Below, piece by piece: positions 141 to 59,794 of a stretch of 64,000 nucleotides of DNA. A program made the position numbers and the translations under genes. Positions within the stretch are counted from its first letter, which is position 1, and every line of letters starts with the position of its first letter. This DNA is from Klebsiella phage KMI7. Under the pieces are notes generated by a model that was not told the origin of the DNA, searched no databases, and saw only the letters and a program-made list of their open reading frames with translations. Where the stretch lies: sequence record MN101221.1; one strand, 5' to 3'.

Positions 141-190
141 CTTGACTTCGGTTGAGGGCTTTTGTTATATTGGGCCTATCGAAAAAGGAG
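141..190 (+). promoter_or_regulatory. Hairpin/early-promoter cassette copy 1: UUCG-loop stem 145-170 with TTGACT -35 in the stem, spacer 17, TATATT -10, leader ATCGAAAAAGGAG
   Basis: aaagcccTTGACTtcggttgagggcttttgtTATATT seen directly; six further copies elsewhere in window. Confidence 0.7.
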
Positions 191-5453: not shown

Positions 5454-5470
5454 TAAATAATCAGTTAAAT

Positions 5471-5489
5471 GGCCTTCGGGCCATTTTTT
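5471..5489 (+). terminator. rho-independent terminator (GGCC-UUCG-GGCC + U6)
   Basis: Hairpin + T-run immediately before late promoter. Confidence 0.7.
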
Positions 5490-5492
5490 GTA

Positions 5493-5500
5493 TATAAATA
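5493..5500 (+). promoter_or_regulatory. T4-type late promoter TATAAATA for gene 34
   Basis: Exact TATAAATA about 30 nt upstream of gene 34 ATG. Confidence 0.8.
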
Positions 5501-5532
5501 TTGGTATTGAATACAATATAGGAAAAAAGATA

Positions 5533-8500
5533 ATGGTAGCTAAATCATTCCGCGCACGAAGTGGCCTTGATGCCGCTGGTGAAAAAGTTATCAACGTTGG
5601 GAAGGCTGATCGTAATACGCTGAGTGACGGCGTTAACGTTGACTTTTTCAATGAATTTAACGGAATCCAGCAGTATGACCCGACCCGTGGTTATTCTCAA
5701 GACATGGCGATCATTTATGCGCGTCGTATCTGGTACGCAAAACAGAATATTGCTTCCCCTGCTGGGGCTTTCGACGAATCCAAATGGATCGCAACTCGTA
5801 ATGACCCGAAATGGGTTTATAGTAACGTAACCACTCCAGACGGTAGCATTATTGAATCTGGTAGTTACATTATGGCTGATGGGCGCTTTACTGAACTTCT
5901 GTACCTGCTGCCGGACAACCCGACAGAGGGCGACGTAATCACGTTTAAAGATTGCGGTGGTTTAGTAGGTGTGAACAGTATCCTTGTTAAGTCTAACACC
6001 CGTCAAATCCGTTTACGTGCGGTACAATCGGCACAGTATAGACTGACCCACCCGTACATGATCGCAACGTTTATCTATAACGGTAACGTATGGCGTGTTG
6101 CTGAAACTCTGGACAACCGTGATTCTGAGATCGTGAACGCAACCGGAACAGGTTCATTCCAGTTACAATCTGGTATGACAGTTTTCCGTAACAGTGCTAC
6201 AGGTAAAATCACTCTCCAGTTGCCGAAATATGCAAATGATGGTGATGTGATCACAACCTATGACGCTGATAAAATGAACTCTATCAACGTAGCCGTGTTG
6301 CAGATTTATCCAGGTAGTGGACACACTATTTCTGATGGTGCAAGTACTGGTGTTACTTCGGTAACTAGCCAGAAATCCGGCTTTGGTATGTTCATTTTTG
6401 ATGCACAGAATAGCCAATGGAAAGTATATGATGCTGATAACCGTGTTCGTCTGCGTCGTATCTATAGTGATTTAAACGCAGTTCCTAACGATTACGTTTT
6501 TGTTACTGCAAACCCTTCTGGGACTATACCAAACGTTACAGTTACCCTTCCAACTGATGTTGCTGATGGTGATCGCGTTTACGTATCCCTTTACATGATG
6601 GGTAAAAACCAGAACTGTACAATCAAAGTTAAAGATGGTACAACGGACAAGATCCGCACCAACAAAAATATGATGAAGTTCCCGCAGCGCAAAGATTATC
6701 CGCCTGATGATTGGTTTAGTGTAACTTCATTAGCCTTTAATGCTGGTAGTGATTACCTCCCGTATATCGAGTTTTCTTATCTGAAAGCTACGAAAGAATG
6801 GGTTGTTGCTAATTATCGTCCAATCGTTGAACGTGTTGATGCAACGAACAGATCGCGTACTGGTGTTATTGCTCTTGCTGCACAGGCAGAAGTAAACAAA
6901 AACTTGGAAGATAACCCGAACGACGAAACCGCTATTACTCCGATGACGTTAGCAAATAAAACTGCTACTGAAACCCGTCGTGGTATTGCGCGTTTAGCAA
7001 CAACTGCCGAGGTTAACAAACTTTCAACCGATACCTATCTGGATGATGTGATTGTTACCCCTAAGAAGCTGAACGAAAGAACAGCAACTGAAACCCGTCG
7101 TGGGCTGGCAGAAATCGCAACTCAGGCAGAAACCAACGGAAGCACCGATGATATTACTATTGTAACCCCTAAAAAGTTGCATAACCGTATTGCATCGCCG
7201 ACCTTGACTGGTATCCTTGCCCTTGTTGCTACTGGTGGTGCTCCTAACACCAACACGGATCGTGCTCAGGCTGGTACTGGGGTTTATGATCATTCAGATT
7301 ATCAGAAAGCGGTAACGCCTAAAACTCTTCGTGAGTATAAAGCGACTCAGTTACAATCCGGTGCTGTATGGCTGGCTTCTGAAACCGAAGTTATTAACGG
7401 TACTGTTGCAAGTTCAAACATTCCGACCGTTGTTACTCCGGAAATGCTGCACAAGAAAACCTCTACTGATGGTCGTATTGGTTTGATCGAGATTGCTACC
7501 CAGGCAGAAACAAACGCAGGGACTGATTACACGCGAGCGGTAACGCCTAAAACGCTTAACGATCGTGCTGCAACGGAAACGCTGACAGGTATCATTGCAA
7601 TTGCAACCACTGCCGAAGTATCAGCAGGTACTGTAACGAATAAAGCGATCGTACCGTCTAAACTGAAAGGTTATCTGGACGATACAAGTCATATTACTGT
7701 TGCTACTGCTGACGGGTTAACTCAATCTGGTACTATCTGGACTACGGTTAACATCGGTATTCAATCAGCAACCGAAACTCAACGTGGTACTTTACGCGTT
7801 GCTACGCAGTCTGAGACGAACGCAGGGACATTAGATACAGTATTTGTCACCCCTAAGAAGTTACACGCTAAGAAAGCGACTGAGAGCGCAGAAGGTATCA
7901 TTCAGGTGGCTACGGCTGCTGAAACTACTGCTGGCACCGTTGCAAACAAGGCTGTTTCTCCTAAGAACTTGAAAAATACAATTCAGGTTGATACTTCATG
8001 GCAAGCTACCGATCTGGTACGTGGTACTGTGAAGCTGTCTAAGGGGCTTGGTACTTGGTCTGGTAATGATGTGGCTGGTTCTACTCTTCCGGATGATGGT
8101 TACGCCGCTGTAGGTGTTGCTGTTTCTCCGTATGAACTGAACTTAACACTGAAACACTATCTGCCGATCGGGGCTAAAGCGGTTGATGCTGACAAGCTGG
8201 ATAACCTGGATTCTTCCCAGTTCATTCGTCGTGATGTTGATCAGACGGTTAACGGGGCATTGACTCTAACGAAAGCAACCACTGTACAGGCTGACATTAA
8301 CTCAACCGCTGACGCAAGTTTCCGGGTAATGAATGTTAGTGGAGATCTGAACGTTGGTAACGGCTCTACGATGGGTAAACTTCGTTTGAATGGTGGATCA
8401 TCTAACGACTGGTCAATTCAAGCAAGTTCAGCCTCTGGGCGTATTGCAATGATCTCAACGGGTAACACTGGCACAGTTCATCTTTCTGTGTATAATGATA

Positions 8501-9306
8501 CTCGCGGCGTTGTCGCTAACGTTAAATTCCAGGCTCCTGAAATTCAGGCGATTAGCAAAGTGACTCTGGGTAATGATACAGTGATCACGGCTGCTGGTTC
8601 TGTTCTCTCTATGGGTACGAACAACAAGACAACTAAGATCCTAACTTCGGATGCTGGTAACATTTTGGCAGAAGAATCAGGGAACTCTTATAAAGTCTTT
8701 ACTGAGAAGAACGCGCAAACCTTGCTGAATCCTACGTATGTACGTAAAGCAGGTGATACGATGTCTGGACGGTTGACGATAAGCAACAGTTCAATTATCA
8801 TCGCAGGTCAAGCGGCTTGGTCAACGCTGGATGCAGTAACAGAAGCATCTAGGGGTAACTGGACGGCTGAGATCACAGCATCGGCGCAATACAACTTGCT
8901 CCCAGGTTATGCGGTTCCGGTTCTTGAACCAGACCCGATTAATCCGGATATCATGATTGTAACCCGTTATACCTATGTTAAAGCACCTGGTACTTTAACG
9001 CAGTTTGGTAACGGAACTGCATTCACTTATCAGATTTGGGCACCTCGTCCGACCTCTGGTACTGGTGTTAATGCGCTGGCGCAATCCTTCTGGATCCGTC
9101 AGATGAACCCAATCACAGGTAAATTTGACGAGTGGGGCCGCATGTATACGAGCAACAACCCGCCTACTGCTGGTGAGATTGGTGCAACGTCTGCTGTTGG
9201 TACTACGGTTAAAAACATGACTGTTACCGATTGGATCAAAGTTGGTAACGTTAGGATTTACCCAGATCCGGTTACTCAGACAGTTAAATTTGAGTGGGTG
9301 GCATAA
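5533..9306 (+). CDS. 34: Long tail fiber proximal subunit gp34
   Basis: Strong alignment to T4 gp34 (e.g. SRTGVIALAAQAEVN..TATETRRGIARLATTAEVN, tandem TETRRG-ATQAETNAGT repeats, C-terminal NVRIYPDPVTQTVKFEWVA); track start 5488 is an upstream ATG, RBS favours 5533. Confidence 0.95.
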   Translation: MVAKSFRARSGLDAAGEKVINVGKADRNTLSDGVNVDFFNEFNGIQQYDPTRGYSQDMAIIYARRIWYAKQNIASPAGAFDESKWIATRNDPKWVYSNVTTPDGSIIESGSYIMADGRFTELLYLLPDNPTEGDVITFKDCGGLVGVNSILVKSNTRQIRLRAVQSAQYRLTHPYMIATFIYNGNVWRVAETLDNRDSEIVNATGTGSFQLQSGMTVFRNSATGKITLQLPKYANDGDVITTYDADKMNSINVAVLQIYPGSGHTISDGASTGVTSVTSQKSGFGMFIFDAQNSQWKVYDADNRVRLRRIYSDLNAVPNDYVFVTANPSGTIPNVTVTLPTDVADGDRVYVSLYMMGKNQNCTIKVKDGTTDKIRTNKNMMKFPQRKDYPPDDWFSVTSLAFNAGSDYLPYIEFSYLKATKEWVVANYRPIVERVDATNRSRTGVIALAAQAEVNKNLEDNPNDETAITPMTLANKTATETRRGIARLATTAEVNKLSTDTYLDDVIVTPKKLNERTATETRRGLAEIATQAETNGSTDDITIVTPKKLHNRIASPTLTGILALVATGGAPNTNTDRAQAGTGVYDHSDYQKAVTPKTLREYKATQLQSGAVWLASETEVINGTVASSNIPTVVTPEMLHKKTSTDGRIGLIEIATQAETNAGTDYTRAVTPKTLNDRAATETLTGIIAIATTAEVSAGTVTNKAIVPSKLKGYLDDTSHITVATADGLTQSGTIWTTVNIGIQSATETQRGTLRVATQSETNAGTLDTVFVTPKKLHAKKATESAEGIIQVATAAETTAGTVANKAVSPKNLKNTIQVDTSWQATDLVRGTVKLSKGLGTWSGNDVAGSTLPDDGYAAVGVAVSPYELNLTLKHYLPIGAKAVDADKLDNLDSSQFIRRDVDQTVNGALTLTKATTVQADINSTADASFRVMNVSGDLNVGNGSTMGKLRLNGGSSNDWSIQASSASGRIAMISTGNTGTVHLSVYNDTRGVVANVKFQAPEIQAISKVTLGNDTVITAAGSVLSMGTNNKTTKILTSDAGNILAEESGNSYKVFTEKNAQTLLNPTYVRKAGDTMSGRLTISNSSIIIAGQAAWSTLDAVTEASRGNWTAEITASAQYNLLPGYAVPVLEPDPINPDIMIVTRYTYVKAPGTLTQFGNGTAFTYQIWAPRPTSGTGVNALAQSFWIRQMNPITGKFDEWGRMYTSNNPPTAGEIGATSAVGTTVKNMTVTDWIKVGNVRIYPDPVTQTVKFEWVA

Positions 9307-17981: not shown

Positions 17982-18060
17982 GGTATTTCTCCTTAAAGGG
18001 TATCTCGTTTCGATATGGCTAATATAGCAAAAGCCCTTGACTTCGGTCAAGGGCTTTTTT
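17982..18060 (-). promoter_or_regulatory. Hairpin/early-promoter cassette copy 2 (terminator stem 18031-18056; -35 CTTGAC, -10 CTATAT, leader ATCGAAACGAG)
   Basis: aaagcccTTGACttcggtcaagggcttttgCTATATtagccatATCGAAACGAGatacccTTTAAGGAGaaatacc ATG on minus strand. Confidence 0.7.
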
Positions 18061-26968: not shown

Positions 26969-27173
26969 ATGCTCGTTTTATCTTTTCCAGAATGGAAATA
27001 AGTTCATCAACCTGCATTCTGGTCAGTGTTATTGTTTTTCCGTCCTGGATAATTTCTGTCATTTCTGATACGGATTCCGTATTAAATTTGACATCCAGTA
27101 AATCAGAATACGGTTCTGGTTGAAATCCTTCTGCAAAACCGTAATCATCGGGGATCCATTCATTAATTTTCAT
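26967..27173 (-). CDS. hypothetical protein (68 aa)
   Basis: ORF; ATG 27173 preferred over track GTG 27182. Confidence 0.45.
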   Translation of the reverse strand: MKINEWIPDDYGFAEGFQPEPYSDLLDVKFNTESVSEMTEIIQDGKTITLTRMQVDELISILEKIKRA

Positions 27174-27178
27174 GATAA

Positions 27179-27343
27179 TCACTTGTTATAAGGGAAACCA
27201 TCACGAACCATTTGCGGTTTGTCCACCGTTCGTTTTGCTTTGCCCCCGCAATAACACTCTTTCGGTTCGTCGCGGCTTGCGATGCTTGACATCTTCGGGA
27301 ATTCTTTTTCGCACTTGGTGCATTTATAGGTATAGGTAGGCAT
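27179..27343 (-). CDS. small zinc-ribbon protein (54 aa; CxxC...CxC, FmdB-like) not in ORF track
   Basis: MPTYTYKCTKCEKEFPKMSSIASRDEPKECYCGG...; TAATG coupling with upstream gene stop at 27343. Confidence 0.55.
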   Translation of the reverse strand: MPTYTYKCTKCEKEFPKMSSIASRDEPKECYCGGKAKRTVDKPQMVRDGFPYNK

Positions 27344-29626: not shown

Positions 29627-29693
29627 GGTATATCTCCTAAAGTGTGTTTCGTTTCGATGTAAGTACTATATCAAAGATGGTTATTCTATGCAA
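29627..29693 (-). promoter_or_regulatory. Early promoter + conserved leader (TTGCAT-17-TATAGT-6-ATCGAAACGAAAC...CTTTAGGAG)
   Basis: Read on minus strand: ttgcatagaataaccatctttgatatagtacttacATCGAAACGAAACacaCTTTAGGAGatatacc ATG. Confidence 0.65.
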
Positions 29694-29910: not shown

Positions 29911-29975
29911 AATAATTTCCTCCCTTGTTTCGATGGGGTAACTATACCAAAGCTACCCCAGAATGTTTTAACAAA
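29911..29975 (-). promoter_or_regulatory. Promoter/leader variant (TATAGT-6-ATCGAAACAAGGGAGG)
   Basis: tatagttaccccATCGAAACaagggaggaaattatt ATG on minus strand. Confidence 0.45.
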
Positions 29976-30247: not shown

Positions 30248-30322
30248 TTTCGTATTCCTTTCTCTGTTTCGTTTCGATGAATACAAGATACCAAAAAGCC
30301 TCCCGCAATGCAAGAGGCTTCT
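30248..30322 (-). promoter_or_regulatory. Hairpin/early-promoter cassette copy 7 with leader (stem 30296-30320 containing TTGCAT; -10 TATCTT; ATCGAAACGAAAC)
   Basis: aagcctcTTGCATtgcgggaggctttttggTATCTTgtattcATCGAAACGAAACagagaaaggaa on minus strand. Confidence 0.65.
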
Positions 30323-36323: not shown

Positions 36324-36821
36324 TCAACTGGTTAATTTCTTTTTCTTTTTACCTGCACGGGTAACACCTAATACTTTCGGCCCGATGTTGGTTACTGCTC
36401 CAGTAGTCACACCAGAAGCAATCTTTTCCGGATCGCCGCCAGAATCGCCAGCGACCATATCCTCTAACATACGCCCCTTATCATAATATTCTTTGAGGCG
36501 TGGAACGTTCAGCATGATTTCTTCATGCTCTTGTTCCGTCAGATTGTAGCGATTGCGTAAGGTATCATATGAACTGGTTAAGTTCATAAATCCAGTCATA
36601 TACGGAACAGAATTCATTCGACGCTTGATATGGCGTACTGAACGATGAAAAGGAGAATACGCTTCTAACTCTTCTTTTGTTTTGGGGTTGCGAATTACTT
36701 CGCCTTGTCCATCAAGGATCCCCAGCTTGTAAGCAGTCCATTCAGTCCAGGGCTTTTTGAGTAGCCGGATCATCCGGACGCTATATGTTAAATCCATATT
36801 TTTAACTAATTGATCACTCAT
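36324..36821 (-). CDS. hypothetical protein (165 aa)
   Basis: ORF. Confidence 0.5.
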   Translation of the reverse strand: MSDQLVKNMDLTYSVRMIRLLKKPWTEWTAYKLGILDGQGEVIRNPKTKEELEAYSPFHRSVRHIKRRMNSVPYMTGFMNLTSSYDTLRNRYNLTEQEHEEIMLNVPRLKEYYDKGRMLEDMVAGDSGGDPEKIASGVTTGAVTNIGPKVLGVTRAGKKKKKLTS

Positions 36822-38858: not shown

Positions 38859-39095
38859 TTACCTTACATTTTTTGCAATAAACAGTGTTAAACGCGGGAA
38901 TACGTTTGATAGAATGATCATTCTCAGTACAAAACCACCTACTAACACCAACAGCGGAGAACAAACCAACCACCAGGAAGCAGTAGCCATAACGCCGATT
39001 GCTGCTAATTTTAGGTATACCATCACACCAAACAAAATAATTAATATAAGTTTCATTTTAGATTCCATTGTAGGGGCTTTTTCGCCCCCAGTCAA
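38859..39095 (-). CDS. hypothetical membrane protein (78 aa)
   Basis: ORF with two TM helices. Confidence 0.5.
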   Translation of the reverse strand: MTGGEKAPTMESKMKLILIILFGVMVYLKLAAIGVMATASWWLVCSPLLVLVGGFVLRMIILSNVFPRLTLFIAKNVR

Positions 39096-54385: not shown

Positions 54386-56060
54386 AACATTGACTTATCA
54401 AAATATCTTGTCGGTTGGTAACGTACCGATCGTCATTGATTTTGATTCAGCAAAGAAAACCCTCATTACGGGTAAAAACGGCGGTGGTAAATCCACCATG
54501 ATCGAAGCGCTTACATATGCTCTCTTTGGTAAGTCATTTCGCGATCTGAAAGTCGGACAACTGGTGAACAGTATCAACAAGAAAAAATGTCTGGTTGAAC
54601 TGTTGATCGAATACGGTAATGATGAATATAAAATCATCCGTGGACAAAAGCCGAAAGTATTTGAGATCTGGAAGAATGGCGAAAAACTGCCGGAAGATTC
54701 AGCCGCTGGTGATTATCAGTCACAGCTTGAATCAATGTTGAATATTAATCTGGTGGGCTTTAAACAGGTTATCGTTCTGGGTACTGCTGGTTATGTACCT
54801 TTCATGGAACTGAAAACACCAGATCGCCGTAAACTGGTTGAAGATTTGTTGTCTTTGTCTATCATCAGTGAAATGGACAAACTGAACAAATCATACATCC
54901 GTGGTGTTAACCGCGAACTGGATACGCTTTCAATGCAGATTGGACACGTACAACAGCAGATCGCAACACATCAAAAGTTCATTGACGAACAACGGGCAAA
55001 AGCAAATCAGAATACGGCGCGTTACCAGGATATCTACGATTCCCACGTAGAAACAGCAAAACAGATTAAAGCGCAATTAGTTGAACTTCAAACCCAGATC
55101 GCAGAATGTGTGATCAATGGTGAAGACCAAACAGCAAATATTCAAAAACTGCGTGATGGCTATACACGCCTCTCAATGAACGTAGAACAGTTGCAGCGTC
55201 TTGAGGTGATGTATCGCAAGGGTGGTGAATGTCCGGCCTGTAAACAGCCAATTAGCCCCACTCCTGAACGCATGGAAGAGATTGCCGAGAATATTAAAAA
55301 CGGTACTCAGAAACTTACGCTGATTAAGAACAAGCAAGATCAGCTACAGAAAATCATGGATGATTTACTAACACAACAACGTACACTAAATGGGCTGAAA
55401 TCCAAATACGAATCACTACGCGGTACACTTCAAAACGAAGTTGCAGCGGCTAAACGTGTTCGGGCTGTCATGGATAAAGCACAGGAAGACGTGGTGATCG
55501 ACGAATCCCCAGTTGAAAAACTCCGTGAAGATGAAAAGGAACTTGATTCTAAACGTTCTGGATTTGTCAAGGAAAAATATTTCAGAGGTATTGTTACGGA
55601 TCTGCTGAAAGATTCCGGCGTTAAAGCGAGCATCGTTAAACGTTATATTCCTTACTTCAATAAACAGATTGCGTACTATCTGGATCTGTTGGGTGCTGAT
55701 TATCAGTTCACTCTGGATGATGAATTTAACGAATCGATTAAATCGCTGGGTCGTAATGATTTTAGTTACGCATCGTTCAGTCAAGGAGAAAGAGCACGTA
55801 TCAACCTTGCTTTACTTTTCACCTGGCGCGATGTAACCAGTAAAATTTCTGGTGTTGATTTATCCCTTCTGATCCTGGATGAAGTGTACGATGGTGCAAT
55901 TGATCGTGATGGTAGTTTTGCTGTAAAAGCACTATTGGATGGGATAAATGGTAACGTAATTGTTATCAGTCATCAGGATTTGGATCCGGAAGATTTCGAC
56001 CGACATATTGTTATGTCAAAAGTCGGTCGATTCTCTAAAATGGAAGTTAAGAAGTCTTAA
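54369..56060 (+). CDS. 46: Recombination endonuclease subunit gp46 (Rad50/SbcC-like ATPase)
   Basis: GKNGGGKSTMIEA Walker A, coiled-coil middle with CPxC zinc hook, C-terminal signature and D-loop; colinear with T4 gp46. Confidence 0.92.
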   Translation: MKLKFKTLTYQNILSVGNVPIVIDFDSAKKTLITGKNGGGKSTMIEALTYALFGKSFRDLKVGQLVNSINKKKCLVELLIEYGNDEYKIIRGQKPKVFEIWKNGEKLPEDSAAGDYQSQLESMLNINLVGFKQVIVLGTAGYVPFMELKTPDRRKLVEDLLSLSIISEMDKLNKSYIRGVNRELDTLSMQIGHVQQQIATHQKFIDEQRAKANQNTARYQDIYDSHVETAKQIKAQLVELQTQIAECVINGEDQTANIQKLRDGYTRLSMNVEQLQRLEVMYRKGGECPACKQPISPTPERMEEIAENIKNGTQKLTLIKNKQDQLQKIMDDLLTQQRTLNGLKSKYESLRGTLQNEVAAAKRVRAVMDKAQEDVVIDESPVEKLREDEKELDSKRSGFVKEKYFRGIVTDLLKDSGVKASIVKRYIPYFNKQIAYYLDLLGADYQFTLDDEFNESIKSLGRNDFSYASFSQGERARINLALLFTWRDVTSKISGVDLSLLILDEVYDGAIDRDGSFAVKALLDGINGNVIVISHQDLDPEDFDRHIVMSKVGRFSKMEVKKS

Positions 56061-56772
56061 ACTTGCAGTTATCAAAATGCCAGCGATTCATATTGCTGGC
56101 ATCACCAGATTTATTGCAATATGGACAAATCAACTGCTTCCTTTTTGCTGGCGTCTTTCTATTTGGGTTATTTCTGCAATACGGTATATGTGAACGCAGA
56201 TAATGTAATGACGATTCTGTTCCGCAATATGGACAATTGCCCCGTTCTTTAGGTACGTTTCCGTTCTTATGGGAACACGGGATACCCTCGAACTTATGTT
56301 TCAACCCTTCATTACCTGGTTTCAGTTTGCAGTTGTCGAAGTGCCAACGAGTCATATTTCCAATTATACCTGATTTTCCGCAATGAGGACACACAACCCT
56401 TTCTTGTTGCTTTTTGGCTTTACTCATTCGCTGTCTGGTTTCTTCGGTGAACTCTCTATTCCTATGTGCTTCTGACGCTTTTTTCTTTAACCATTCATAG
56501 CGGCGGTTAGCTGTTCTTTCCTTTGATCTATTGGAACCAACTGTTAACATATGCGCTGCAAAAACAAGTTTGTTATTTCCTGGGTACATCTTGACTAATA
56601 ACAGATGCGCAATATAATGTTGACGCGCTGTAAGATTAACCAAATTATCATCAGAATCTGTTCCACCTATGCACTTAGGTATGATATGGTGTGATTCTGT
56701 ATATCCATCATACTGCGTTTGTTTAGCATGTTCTATGATAGAGTTATAAATTTTGTTATAGTTCATAAACAT
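56047..56772 (-). mobile_element. Free-standing HNH homing endonuclease (Mob-like) with three C-terminal CPxCG...RWHFDNCK zinc-finger repeats
   Basis: HHIIPKCIGGTDSDDNLVNLTARQHYIAH HNH motif; 3' end overlaps gene 46 stop convergently by 14 nt. Confidence 0.8.
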
Positions 56773-56822
56773 ATCTCTTGTTTGATGGGCCGTTAGATAC
56801 CCCTATTTAAGAGGATGAAATT

Positions 56823-57017
56823 ATGTTATTAGAAAAATCTTTTGAATTAGAAACCGCTCTGGAAATAGAGCGGTTTTATCTCCACAACAATTTTCTTGAA
56901 GAAAAACATATAGTTACTATGAAAGATGTTGAGGAAGCATTCAAAAATAATCCTATAGAGTTGACGCGAATCAAGAACAACAAAAGTTCTGTTTGGTTCC
57001 TCGAAAAAATCTATTGA
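56823..57017 (+). CDS. hypothetical protein (64 aa)
   Basis: ORF with AAGAGGA RBS; terminator hairpin follows. Confidence 0.5.
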   Translation: MLLEKSFELETALEIERFYLHNNFLEEKHIVTMKDVEEAFKNNPIELTRIKNNKSSVWFLEKIY

Positions 57018-57090: not shown

Positions 57091-57327
57091 ATGATCACCG
57101 AATCCAAAATGACTTATCAGGAAGCACTGAAAGTTTTGGGCGCAACTGGTAGCGAAACCAGCGCCGAAATGTCCAGACTCTTCAAACGTGCATCCTTACG
57201 CAATCACCCCGACCGTGGTGGTAGCAATGAATTAATGCAGAAAATTAACCAGGCTTACGACGTCGTTACAAAAACTGGGCCTAGTGGCGCACGTTCTGAG
57301 ACTGCTGGTGACGTTCGCGCACGTTAG
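57091..57327 (+). CDS. J-domain (DnaJ-like) protein, 78 aa
   Basis: YQEALKVLG...LFKRASLRNHPDRGGSNELMQKINQAYDVV with invariant HPD tripeptide; GAGGA RBS. Confidence 0.8.
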   Translation: MITESKMTYQEALKVLGATGSETSAEMSRLFKRASLRNHPDRGGSNELMQKINQAYDVVTKTGPSGARSETAGDVRAR

Positions 57328-57775
57328 CGGAAACGATATCTTTGTTGAAGTTGGTACACTGAAAGTTCGTTTCTATCGTCACGTGTTCATGCGCAAAGGT
57401 GCTTATGTGTTTAGCGCGGTGTATGATCCTGCTGTATCTAAGTATCGTCCGGCTGCACAACTTCGCGGAACCATGTTCGAAGACGAAGACGGCGCTTGCC
57501 TGGATATGATCGTTGATACGTTCAAAGAGTTGCAGAAACTGAAACCGAGTGTTCAAGGCGTTGTGAACGCGATCGATAAGATGAACGCAGAGTTTGCAGC
57601 GGGACATCGTTCAGCATCTTTTGTTAAACGTGTAGCTGCTCAGGAAGCCGCGCCGAAGCCAGAAGAGAAGCCAAAACGCACTGTTAATCGTATCGGTAAA
57701 GAGGCACTGGAAGAACGATATTCCAACATCACGGGGATCTTTTCCCCGTCCTTGACGTTGTTAATGATATCCTGA
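57284..57775 (+). CDS. hypothetical protein in +1 frame overlapping J-domain gene (start uncertain; possibly expressed by frameshift or from internal ATG 57389)
   Basis: Protein-like ORF (…FEDEDGACLDMIVDTFKELQKLKPSVQGVVNAIDKMNAEF…) with no RBS at its GTG/ATG candidates. Confidence 0.45.
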   Translation: MAHVLRLLVTFAHVSGNDIFVEVGTLKVRFYRHVFMRKGAYVFSAVYDPAVSKYRPAAQLRGTMFEDEDGACLDMIVDTFKELQKLKPSVQGVVNAIDKMNAEFAAGHRSASFVKRVAAQEAAPKPEEKPKRTVNRIGKEALEERYSNITGIFSPSLTLLMIS

Positions 57776-59783: not shown

Positions 59784-59794
59784 TTATAGAAACC

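Follow-up and report, generated by a model that had tools for sequence, protein, structure and literature searches.

Can one and the same run of some 45 bases close the transcript of one gene and open that of the next? The question is raised by an intergenic element of Klebsiella phage KMI7 that recurs as seven related copies (E1-E7, ≈ 45 nt each; one on the + strand, six on the - strand) in the 64,000-nucleotide stretch of DNA analysed here, taken from sequence record MN101221.1 and called the window throughout. The family is real, as a preliminary description of the window, which had placed all copies on the strands on which they were found, already supposed, and chance is excluded: a 38-mer of E1 recurs exactly at E5, an unrelated locus, where shuffled sequences give an expectation of 0.00 matches, and a covariance model applied to the whole window with its filters off matched all seven loci on the sense strand. 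It is quite probable that each element is a compact cassette, acting within the same ≈ 45 bases as terminator for the upstream gene and as sigma70 promoter for the downstream gene. The evidence comprises the anatomy of the copies, a hairpin conserved strand-specifically at the RNA level, an additional constraint on its 5' arm, and a genome-wide distribution in which the elements are intergenic and co-oriented with their genes.

Architecture of the seven elements

All seven elements are located between the stop codon of one gene and the Shine-Dalgarno (SD) sequence and ATG of the next, in the orientation of both flanking genes (7/7). Limits are given below from the A-tract to the predicted start; the names of flanking and other genes in the window were transferred from the annotation of phage VAC13.

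E1, 133-178, + strand: A-tract 133-137, 5' arm GCCCTTGAC 138-146, loop TTCG 147-150, 3' arm 151-159, T-tract; -35 TTGACT 142-147, spacer 18, TGt and -10 TATATT 166-171, predicted start A178 (ATCGAAA 178-184), ATG 198; nrdD stop (128-130) on one side, a small open reading frame (ORF) on the other.
E2, 18060-18014, - strand: 5' arm 18054-18046, loop CGAA 18045-18042, 3' arm 18041-18033, a perfect palindrome; -35 TTGACC 18050-18045, spacer 18, TGc and TATATT 18026-18021, predicted start A18014 (ATCGAAACGAGATACC), ATG 17981; site between ndd and t.
E3, 23710-23667, - strand: arms 23707-23699 and 23695-23687, loop AAT; -35-like TTGCAA 23702-23697, spacer 17, TGc and TATATT 23679-23674, ATG 23643; neighbours are the topoisomerase medium subunit (gp52-like) and a SprT-like ORF preceding rIIA/rIIB.
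E4, 30320-30278, - strand: arms 30318-30310 and 30306-30298, loop ATT; -35-like TTGCAT 30313-30308, spacer 17, TGg and TATCTT 30290-30285, predicted start A30278 (ATCGAAACGAAACAGAG), ATG 30247.
E5, 31073-31030, - strand: arms 31070-31062 and 31057-31049, loop TTCG; -35 TTGACT 31066-31061, spacer 18, TGt and TATATT 31042-31037, ATG 31013; follows a LysM-domain ORF downstream of dexA.
E6, 45556-45512, - strand: arms 45551-45543 (GCCCTTGCA) and 45538-45530, loop TTCG; -35-like TTGCAT 45547-45542, spacer 17, TGt and TATATT 45524-45519, ATG 45490; neighbours are regA and two small ORFs ahead of DNA polymerase gene 43.
E7, 58521-58477, - strand: arms 58516-58508 and 58503-58495, loop TTCG; -35 TTGACT 58512-58507, spacer 17, no TGn (TTt instead), -10 TATTAT 58489-58484, ATG 58455.

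Read on the gene strand, the copies share a fixed order of 3-6 A, a 9-nt 5' arm (GCCCTTGAC, GCCCTTGCA or GCCTCTTGC), a loop of 3-4 nt, the complementary 3' arm, 3-5 T, TGn and a -10-like hexamer, the stem having a 9-bp G+C core and reaching 12-14 bp if the A·U ends are counted. The UUCG or AUUCG loop of the preliminary description is found as TTCG in E1, E5, E6 and E7, the remaining loops being CGAA (E2), AAT (E3) and ATT (E4). Its placement of TTGACT or TTGCAT in the 5' arm holds for E1, E5 and E7 and for E4 and E6, respectively, and has to be widened by TTGACC in E2 and TTGCAA in E3, with TTGCAT and TTGCAA poor matches to a -35 hexamer. The distance between the two hexamers, given there as exactly 17 nt, is 17 nt in E3, E4, E6 and E7 and 18 nt in E1, E2 and E5. 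TATATT is the -10 hexamer of 5/7 copies, with TATCTT in E4 and TATTAT in E7, and an extended -10 element (TGt, TGc or TGg) precedes it in E1-E6, a feature of 6/7 copies that had gone unnoticed. The -10 is separated from the ATG by 23-39 nt, with the SD sequence in between, and a run of 3-6 A stands 4-5 nt upstream of the -35, the stem bases GCC(C/TC) intervening. Five copies (E1, E2, E4, E5, E7) have small hypothetical ORFs around them; core replication genes are the neighbours of E3, which follows gene 52, and of E6, placed between regA and gene 43. E5 and E4 form direct repeats that bound a 750-bp block of three small ORFs.

The covariance model gave E-values of 1e-11 to 1e-14 in five copies, 0.005 for E3 and 0.84 for E4, the two weak scores being due to the absence of their subfamily from the seed. 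Its other matches were the antisense of the seven loci or weak (E ≥ 0.07), three of the weak ones falling on generic hairpins of terminator type (38224, 57039, 63174). An nhmmer profile built from all seven copies returns them at 5e-16 to 5e-10, matches by construction, and in the whole window no match to an Rfam family attains the gathering score.

The hairpin as sense-strand RNA

Is the hairpin itself selected, and if so, as RNA or as DNA? The folding energies of E1-E7 range from -17.1 to -20.7 kcal/mol (z -3.9 to -6.9), and 0/200 shuffles fold as well. Among 11 distinct paralogues from the window and the complete VAC13 genome, 132/132 cells of the 12-bp helix pair and compensatory changes occur at 5 pairs, counts that refer to paralogous copies and depend on a registration of the stems made by hand because MAFFT misregisters the copies with 3-nt loops (N was used as a placeholder in loop columns, for the 3-nt loops, or T-tract columns only). 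None of 500 shuffles reaches any of the five observed measures, and if the partner is slid by 1-3 columns, pairing among the 11 paralogues falls to 29-66%. A scan of IMG/VR for the exact pattern AAGCCCTTG-N12-GGGCTTT-N3-TAT returned only three unrelated generic terminators, and hence no added copies for covariation.

The strand on which the structure is maintained can be read from its wobble pairs. The seven stems of the window contain 12 G·U wobbles and 0 mismatches on the sense strand, where the opposite strand would have C·A mismatches, and the antisense fold is weaker by 3.9-7.8 kcal/mol in 6/7 copies. Therefore the selected structure is that of the sense RNA and not of a DNA cruciform. 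With a G/C-rich hairpin followed by 3-5 U on the transcribed strand, it has the form of an intrinsic terminator.

A hairpin selected on the sense RNA could also be mainly a stability or processing element of polycistronic early transcripts, protecting 3' ends or serving as RNase target, with independent promoters nearby and little termination. The U-tract, which is interrupted early, would suit such a role, as would the C(UUCG)G-type tetraloops of four copies, which resemble intercistronic hairpins of T4 that are reportedly very stable. The stem nevertheless stands directly before the 3-5 U, as in an intrinsic terminator, and ARNold called the same hairpins terminators in phage KP15, according to the retrieved tables for that phage. 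In addition, the stem-loop of a promoter-early stem-loop (PeSL) cassette of phage RB49 was roughly as efficient a terminator as rrnB T1 when assayed with a reporter (PMC2839356). A stability role is compatible with termination, without mutual exclusion; as the main function it seems quite unlikely.

Probable promoter constraint on the same bases

What speaks for a promoter within a hairpin that already looks like a terminator? In every copy the 5' arm keeps its TTG, the 3' arm being subject to drift. At the site orthologous to E2, the 5' arm GCCCTTGAC is identical in RB43, GAP161, KP27, VAC13, Lemur and the window, and the 3' arm reads GTCGGGGGC in RB43 and Lemur, GTTGAGGGC in GAP161, GTCAGGGGC in KP27 and VAC13, and GTCAAGGGC in the window. 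The changes in the 3' arm are A/G transitions opposite the U-U-G of TTG, and thus wobble keeps the pairing intact with the TTG fixed. A fixed TTG opposite a drifting 3' arm is the pattern that a -35 hexamer embedded in the stem would give. TGn and the -10 hexamer, in turn, stand at a constant offset across the copies.

The start region shows a regularity of its own. The pattern TAnnnT-N6-ATCGAAA(C) is found at five places of the window, where 0.31 would be expected:

166-184, + strand: in E1.
18008-18026, - strand: in E2.
29652-29670, - strand: in a hairpin-less cassette.
29928-29946, - strand: in a hairpin-less cassette.
30272-30290, - strand: in E4.

This suggests a conserved start and initial transcribed sequence, AUCGAAAC, common to hairpin-bearing promoters, hairpin-less promoters and T1-like phages. 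One relative of the family has no hairpin:

29702-29652, - strand: AAAAAAGCCTTGCAT, 17 nt, TGaTATAGT, 6 nt, ATCGAAACGAAAC.

It keeps the upstream half AAAAAGCCTTGCAT 17 nt from TGaTATAGT, together with the -10/leader half, and is devoid of the 3' arm; therefore the promoter module exists apart from the terminator.

Several observations weigh against a double function and would agree with the view that the elements are only ordinary intrinsic terminators, in which TTGAC and TATATT are by-products of an AT-rich genome and of the T-tract, the downstream genes being served by read-through or other promoters. Several GenBank records, those of Matisse, Miro, Miller, Margaery and KLB, label the element solely as 'terminator'. 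A scan of 20 kb for the sigma70 consensus found 55 promoter-like sites against 47.2 in shuffles, that is, no enrichment, so that a lone hexamer match weighs little and the inference rests on the fixed, repeated arrangement. The -35 is poor in three copies, TTGCAT or TTGCAA of E3, E4 and E6 matching TTGACA at 3-4/6 positions, and E4 combines it with the -10 TATCTT; these copies would depend on the extended -10, the TG of which probably matters most where the -35 is weak. The 18-nt spacer of three copies is slightly above the optimum. On the side of the terminator, the U-tract is short, a G or the -10 following after 3-5 U, and pairing between A-tract and U-tract could change termination efficiency. 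Finally, no transcriptome of a Slopekvirus infection was found in the literature searched, and both promoter and terminator activity are predictions.

Set against this, a terminator pure and simple leaves unexplained the TGn and TAT(A/C/T)(T/A)T at constant offset and the fixation of the TTG opposite a drifting arm, E2 orthologues included. The -10/leader module and the AAAAAGCCTTGCAT half are also found before other small ORFs without the hairpin, and generic terminators of the window (e.g. 26968-26951, 38244-38227) have neither the TTG in the arm nor the -10 features of E1-E7. Moreover, efficient terminators without promoters would cut off rIIA/rIIB, gene 43 and many small ORFs from upstream transcription. 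Terminators alone are thus judged an unlikely explanation. A MotA-type middle promoter was rejected as well: position -30 has no TGCTT Mot box, the VAC13 annotation contains neither motA nor asiA, and RB43 has no motA.

Proposed function of the cassette

How would a combined terminator and promoter work? From the arrangement of the bases we infer termination and initiation as follows. In the upstream transcript, A-tract, G+C core and U-tract would fold to a hairpin of 12-14 bp followed by UUUU(G)U and end the transcript, the 3' end of which the hairpin probably shields. In the duplex DNA, the sigma70 RNA polymerase of the host would take its -35 hexamer from the 5' arm (TTGACT/C or the weaker TTGCAT/A), loop, 3' arm and T-tract together would make up the promoter spacer of 17-18 nt, and the end of the T-tract would supply the extended -10 TGn, followed by TATATT. 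Transcription is predicted to start ≈ 7 nt past the -10, in three copies (E1, E2, E4) at the A of ATCGAAA(C), and the resulting leader would measure 17-33 nt and carry the SD sequence. The downstream block of presumably early genes would in this way be re-initiated from its own promoter and insulated from read-through. The early timing is an analogy with T4 and RB49, in which promoters of the sigma70 type are early.

The claim of the preliminary description that the same ≈ 45 nt act as terminator and sigma70-type promoter is accordingly supported in silico, by the covariation, the G·U strandedness, the invariance of TTG, the fixed TGn and -10, and the predictions for KP15 and KP27 taken up below. 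Such elements should not stand as plain terminators in annotation, as they do in several GenBank records, and they are probably the points at which early transcription units begin, the units of rIIA/rIIB and of the gene 43 block included, in Klebsiella and Enterobacter phages of a group much used in therapy work. The arrangement would also be an example of sequence economy, since the 3' half of the terminator is accommodated in the promoter spacer, which is otherwise unconstrained, and its 5' half in the -35 region.

Distribution and mobility

Are the elements mobile, as their recurrence at unrelated loci might lead one to suspect? A profile search of the complete VAC13 genome (174.8 kb) found 13 clear copies and a weaker one, all co-oriented with the neighbouring genes. 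A blastn search with the 45-mer matched 182 of 50,697 phage records; among the matches listed, Slopekvirus genomes carry the element at 6-9 places each and RB43-like Pseudotevenvirus genomes at 2-3. The E2 site (ndd/t) and the E6 site (regA/gene 43 block) are orthologous in Slopekvirus and RB43-like Pseudotevenvirus, and the GAP161 copy at the E2-orthologous site equals the core of E1 at 41/41 bases.

Relative to VAC13, the early strands of the window show five ORF-scale indels, none of which is flanked by two members of the family. The first ends ≈ 15 nt upstream of E2, where an ORF of VAC13, KP27 and GAP161 is missing in the window; the second is a 71-codon ORF (26969-27181) found in the window only, which ends on the generic terminator hairpin 26968-26951; in the third, ORF143 of VAC13 is missing at window 36327-36335, just upstream of a plain promoter TTGACA-17-TATGAT (36327-36299); the fourth is a 198-bp ORF insertion at the edge of a cassette of the RB49 class (39095-39067); and the fifth, the absence of VAC13 ORF268 at window 59785-59792, has no recognisable element at its edges. 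Adjacency of ORF indels to such elements is to be expected, because viable indels must end in the short intergenic spacers.

The E2 site deserves a closer look. Its loop is CGAA in the window, inverted with respect to the TTCG, accompanied by a wobble-containing 3' arm, that was read at this locus in VAC13, KP27, Lemur_ER36 and RB43/GAP161, and 0/115 records exceed ≈ 91% identity across the region. An inversion of the loop within the palindrome seems to have taken place, and together with the mosaic make-up of the promoter cassettes it is suggestive of mobility.

It has therefore to be considered whether the elements are primarily recombination sites or mobile repeats at the DNA level, PeSLs that would excise as mini-circles and shuffle ORFs, with regulation a secondary matter. 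E5 and E4, as direct repeats around three ORFs, present the geometry required for excision of a mini-circle, and mini-circles were demonstrated for RB49/phi1; E1 and E5, though at unrelated loci, are identical over 38 bases; both genera vary in the presence of an ORF ≈ 15 nt upstream of E2; the inverted E2 loop would indicate an event within the palindrome; and the promoter cassettes appear as mosaics of shared upstream, -35/hairpin, -10 and leader modules. Against this stands the G·U-only asymmetry, which does not favour a DNA cruciform as the target of selection. The sites of E2 and E6 are orthologous between two genera, 109 Slopekvirus records show the three-ORF block E5-E4 as one unbroken, unchanged piece, only 1/5 of the indels lies near a family member, the deletion endpoint at E2 lies upstream of the element and not within it, and the adjacency would follow from selection alone. 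Evidence for mobility or module shuffling is weak on this sequence comparison, and a primary role as recombination site is very improbable. The mobile cassettes that shuffle modules, as proposed in the preliminary description, are thus not borne out by the orthologous sites, the conserved block and the single adjoining indel, and the argument made there from a gene order unlike that of T4 carries little weight.

A MITE-like or transposon repeat was likewise rejected, with no terminal inverted repeats beyond the hairpin, no target-site duplications in the flanks read, and sites orthologous across genera. As a separate observation, an insertion of 820 bp relative to VAC13 after gene 46 (56008-56829) contains an ORF (56047-56772, - strand) of 241 residues with weak, sub-threshold Pfam matches to HNH and zinc-ribbon domains; its product may be a homing endonuclease.

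In evolutionary terms, the preferred reading of E1-E7 as regulatory cassettes extends the PeSL idea to Slopekvirus and Pseudotevenvirus and at the same time tempers it, as the copies behave like stable, vertically kept sites and not like visibly mobile ones.

T1-like repeat and promoter-like cassettes

The leaders of the family lead to a second type of cassette, in which a repeat known from T1-like phages is found. The features concerned are:

29992-29916, - strand: second cassette type, with T1-like 21-nt repeat ATAGCACTTTTTGTTAAAA at 29984-29966, stem GGGGTA/TACCCC around TGgTATAGT, and ATCGAAAC leader.
30340-30322, - strand: variant ATAGCATTTTTTTGTTAAA of the T1-like 21-nt repeat upstream of E4, with 3 mismatches, directly before the hairpin.

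In full, the cassette at 29992-29916 has the order ATAGCACTTTTTGTTAAAAC, GGGGTA, TGgTATAGT, TACCCC, ATCGAAAC, and its first 19 nt match exactly the T1-like consensus aaATAGCACnnnTTGnTAAAA of phage TLS, a 21-nt intergenic repeat whose function was listed by the authors as an open question (PMC11447400). The cassette has matches in 799 phage records, ≈ 110 of them at ≥ 90% identity. Pseudotevenvirus-sized T4-like genomes are included in the rows listed, and several hundred records of ≈ 45-53 kb match at ≈ 77-88% identity over 60-70 nt with 1-3 copies each; those of the latter that were checked or carried a genus name were all T1-like Drexlerviridae.

E1, E2 and E4 share the -10/ATCGAAAC leader half with this cassette and with the T1-like cassettes, the leader ATCGAAACGAGATACC of E2 recurs unchanged over 16 nt as a leader of a Tunavirus, and E4 joins a variant of the T1-like repeat to the family hairpin. 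The two sets differ in other respects: the 21-nt repeat aaATAGCACnnnTTGnTAAAA is absent from 6/7 family members, only E4 having a variant, and the T1-like phages are without the GCCCTTGAC hairpin, the family being confined to T4-like phages among the matches listed. Tentatively, and with rather more doubt than confidence, E1-E7 may be regarded as one face of a modular promoter toolkit exchanged by unrelated virulent enterobacterial phages, the modules of which may be an upstream 21-nt repeat, a -35/hairpin module, TGnTATA(T/G)T and a AUCGAAAC leader. If so, PeSL-type cassettes would cross phage families and would not be confined to T4-like lineages, and the T4-like copies, with repeat, extended -10 and fixed start, would speak for the T1-like repeat as a promoter or UP-type element. 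The sharing of promoter and leader modules and of the T1-like repeat with Drexlerviridae is the part of the analysis likeliest to raise a new question.

Window and genomic setting

To which phages does this arrangement belong? The 64-kb window is 97-99% identical to Slopekvirus (Straboviridae) phages of Klebsiella and Enterobacter, e.g. phiEap-3, VAC13, KP15 and KP27. By sequence the source phage is a Slopekvirus and does not belong to the RB49/Phi1 type (Krischvirus). The window starts with the end of nrdD, followed by small ORFs and long tail fibre genes on the + strand; a long early and replication region on the - strand comprises ndd, rIIB, rIIA, 52, 39, dexA, dda, 61, 41, uvsX, 43, regA, 62, 44, 45, 32, 59, 33 and rnh; genes 55, 47 and 46 (+ strand) and a further cluster of small ORFs (- strand) form the end.

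Near this end the gene order is discontinuous. At 57699-57704, the interior of a + strand DnaJ-domain gene (VAC13 ≈ 120,013) is fused to the interior of a - strand ORF (VAC13 ≈ 164,828), omitting 44.8 kb present in VAC13, including nrdAB, td, DNA ligase and baseplate hub genes, and a second gap of 488 bp is located at 57321-57326, 380 bp upstream of this junction. The paired BLAST alignments overlap by 6 bp at both gaps. The adjacency at 57699-57704 was seen in 0/180 matching phage records, and there is no regulatory element at the junction; the join may reflect a deletion variant, an assembly error or a chimeric contig. A link between E7 and the 44.8-kb discontinuity was rejected, as the junction, ≈ 800 bp away from E7, lies within two coding sequences and neither parental site has an element.

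Terminators of other kinds were also noted. At 5467-5500 (+ strand), a hairpin AAATGGCC-ttcg-GGCCATTT with T-tract is followed directly by TATAAATA, the T4 late-promoter consensus, just ahead of the 1272-codon long tail fibre gene 5488-9306; it is a terminator/late-promoter counterpart of the early cassettes. VAC13 contains a separate terminator family AAAGCCCCTTCCTTTCGGTTGGGGCTTT in three copies (L002 11252-11287, L002 45232-45260, L004 27696-27728), which is without the TTGAC and -10 features of the seven-copy family. At least two of its copies lie between converging annotated genes, and the KP15 tables, as far as retrieved, list the hairpin on both strands.

Comparison with known PeSLs and catalogued promoters and terminators

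How do E1-E7 relate to stem-loop cassettes already described? Arbiol, Comeau and Krisch (2010; PMC2839356) characterized the PeSLs of RB49/phi1 as intergenic cassettes of a sigma70-like promoter and a G/C stem-loop, with promoter and terminator activity in reporter assays and detected mini-circles. They distinguished five subclasses by the position of the stem, including stems that overlap the -35 and stems between the boxes, named nrdD and the gene 43 region as PeSL-associated, and stated that RB43 has PeSL-like sequences in the gene 43 region. The likeness extends to loci, with E1 after nrdD and E6 between regA and gene 43, as well as to arrangement: repeated cassettes between stop codon and SD/ATG, sigma70-like boxes at a distance of 17-18 nt (≈ 17 nt in PeSLs; the -35 is weak in E3, E4 and E6), and a stable G/C-rich stem-loop at the promoter, where the stem holds the -35 and loop and 3' arm fill the spacer. 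The likening to PeSLs in the preliminary description is supported as to architecture, E1-E7 agreeing with those subclasses of Arbiol et al. in which the stem-loop covers the -35 or falls within the spacer.

Kinship in sequence with the RB49 PeSLs did not emerge from blastn, the nhmmer profile or the covariance model, in a homology test that comprised a database-wide blastn and the first 50 kb of RB49. Among the matches listed for the 45-mer (60 of 182, with nine Escherichia-named records not all itemised) there is no RB49-like (Krischvirus) phage, and profile and covariance model gave nothing significant in RB49 1-50,000. The PeSLs in this part of RB49 have the form TTGAC(A/G)-GGGGATC...GATCCCC-TATACT, with the stem inside the spacer and without flanking A- and T-tracts, whereas the stem of E1-E7 starts upstream of the -35 and includes it, is bordered by terminator-like A- and T-tracts, and is combined with an extended -10 promoter. 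Copy numbers, 7 in 64 kb and 13-14 per genome (VAC13), are below those of the RB49 PeSLs. A cassette of the RB49 class is itself present in the window:

39095-39067, - strand: TTGACT, GGGGGC-gaaaaa-GCCCC (17 nt), TACAAT; the two boxes enclose the whole stem.

It precedes a 78-codon ORF absent from VAC13 (intervals concerned: 39067-39095 and 38874-39073); VAC13 retains TTGACT and the hairpin and has no -10 there.

The sequences themselves are not new to the literature. Maciejewska et al. (2016; PMC5219037) included the same sequences, in the retrieved parts of Tables S2 and S3, among the putative host promoters and among overlapping rho-independent terminators. As far as these parts go, the KP15 tables hold orthologues of E1, E4, E5, E6 and E7 and the KP27 tables those of E3, E4, E5 and E6, the terminators predicted by ARNold in KP15 are the same hairpins, and at least 8 KP15 promoter entries overlap a terminator entry in coordinates. 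The KP27 RefSeq record likewise has overlapping promoter and terminator features at the E2 orthologue. The two kinds of signal are kept in separate tables there, and the retrieved passages of the paper carry no comment on the overlap, on PeSLs, on the sharing of bases between hairpin and -35, or on conservation at the RNA level.

A wider frame is given by Comeau, Arbiol and Krisch (2014; PMC4122927), who described PeSLs/PmSLs in T4/PST and nt-1/KVP40 in which stems and box consensus are lineage-specific. In these phages the stem-loop lies just upstream of the promoter (Fig. 3 legend, PMC4122927), while in E1-E7 it overlaps the promoter, and the association with indels, documented there between close phage pairs, is weak for E1-E7. 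Apart from these differences, E1-E7 fit the pattern as another lineage-specific set. Already catalogued in earlier work without being interpreted, the family combines a PeSL-like architecture with sequences that are lineage-specific and common to Slopekvirus and Pseudotevenvirus.

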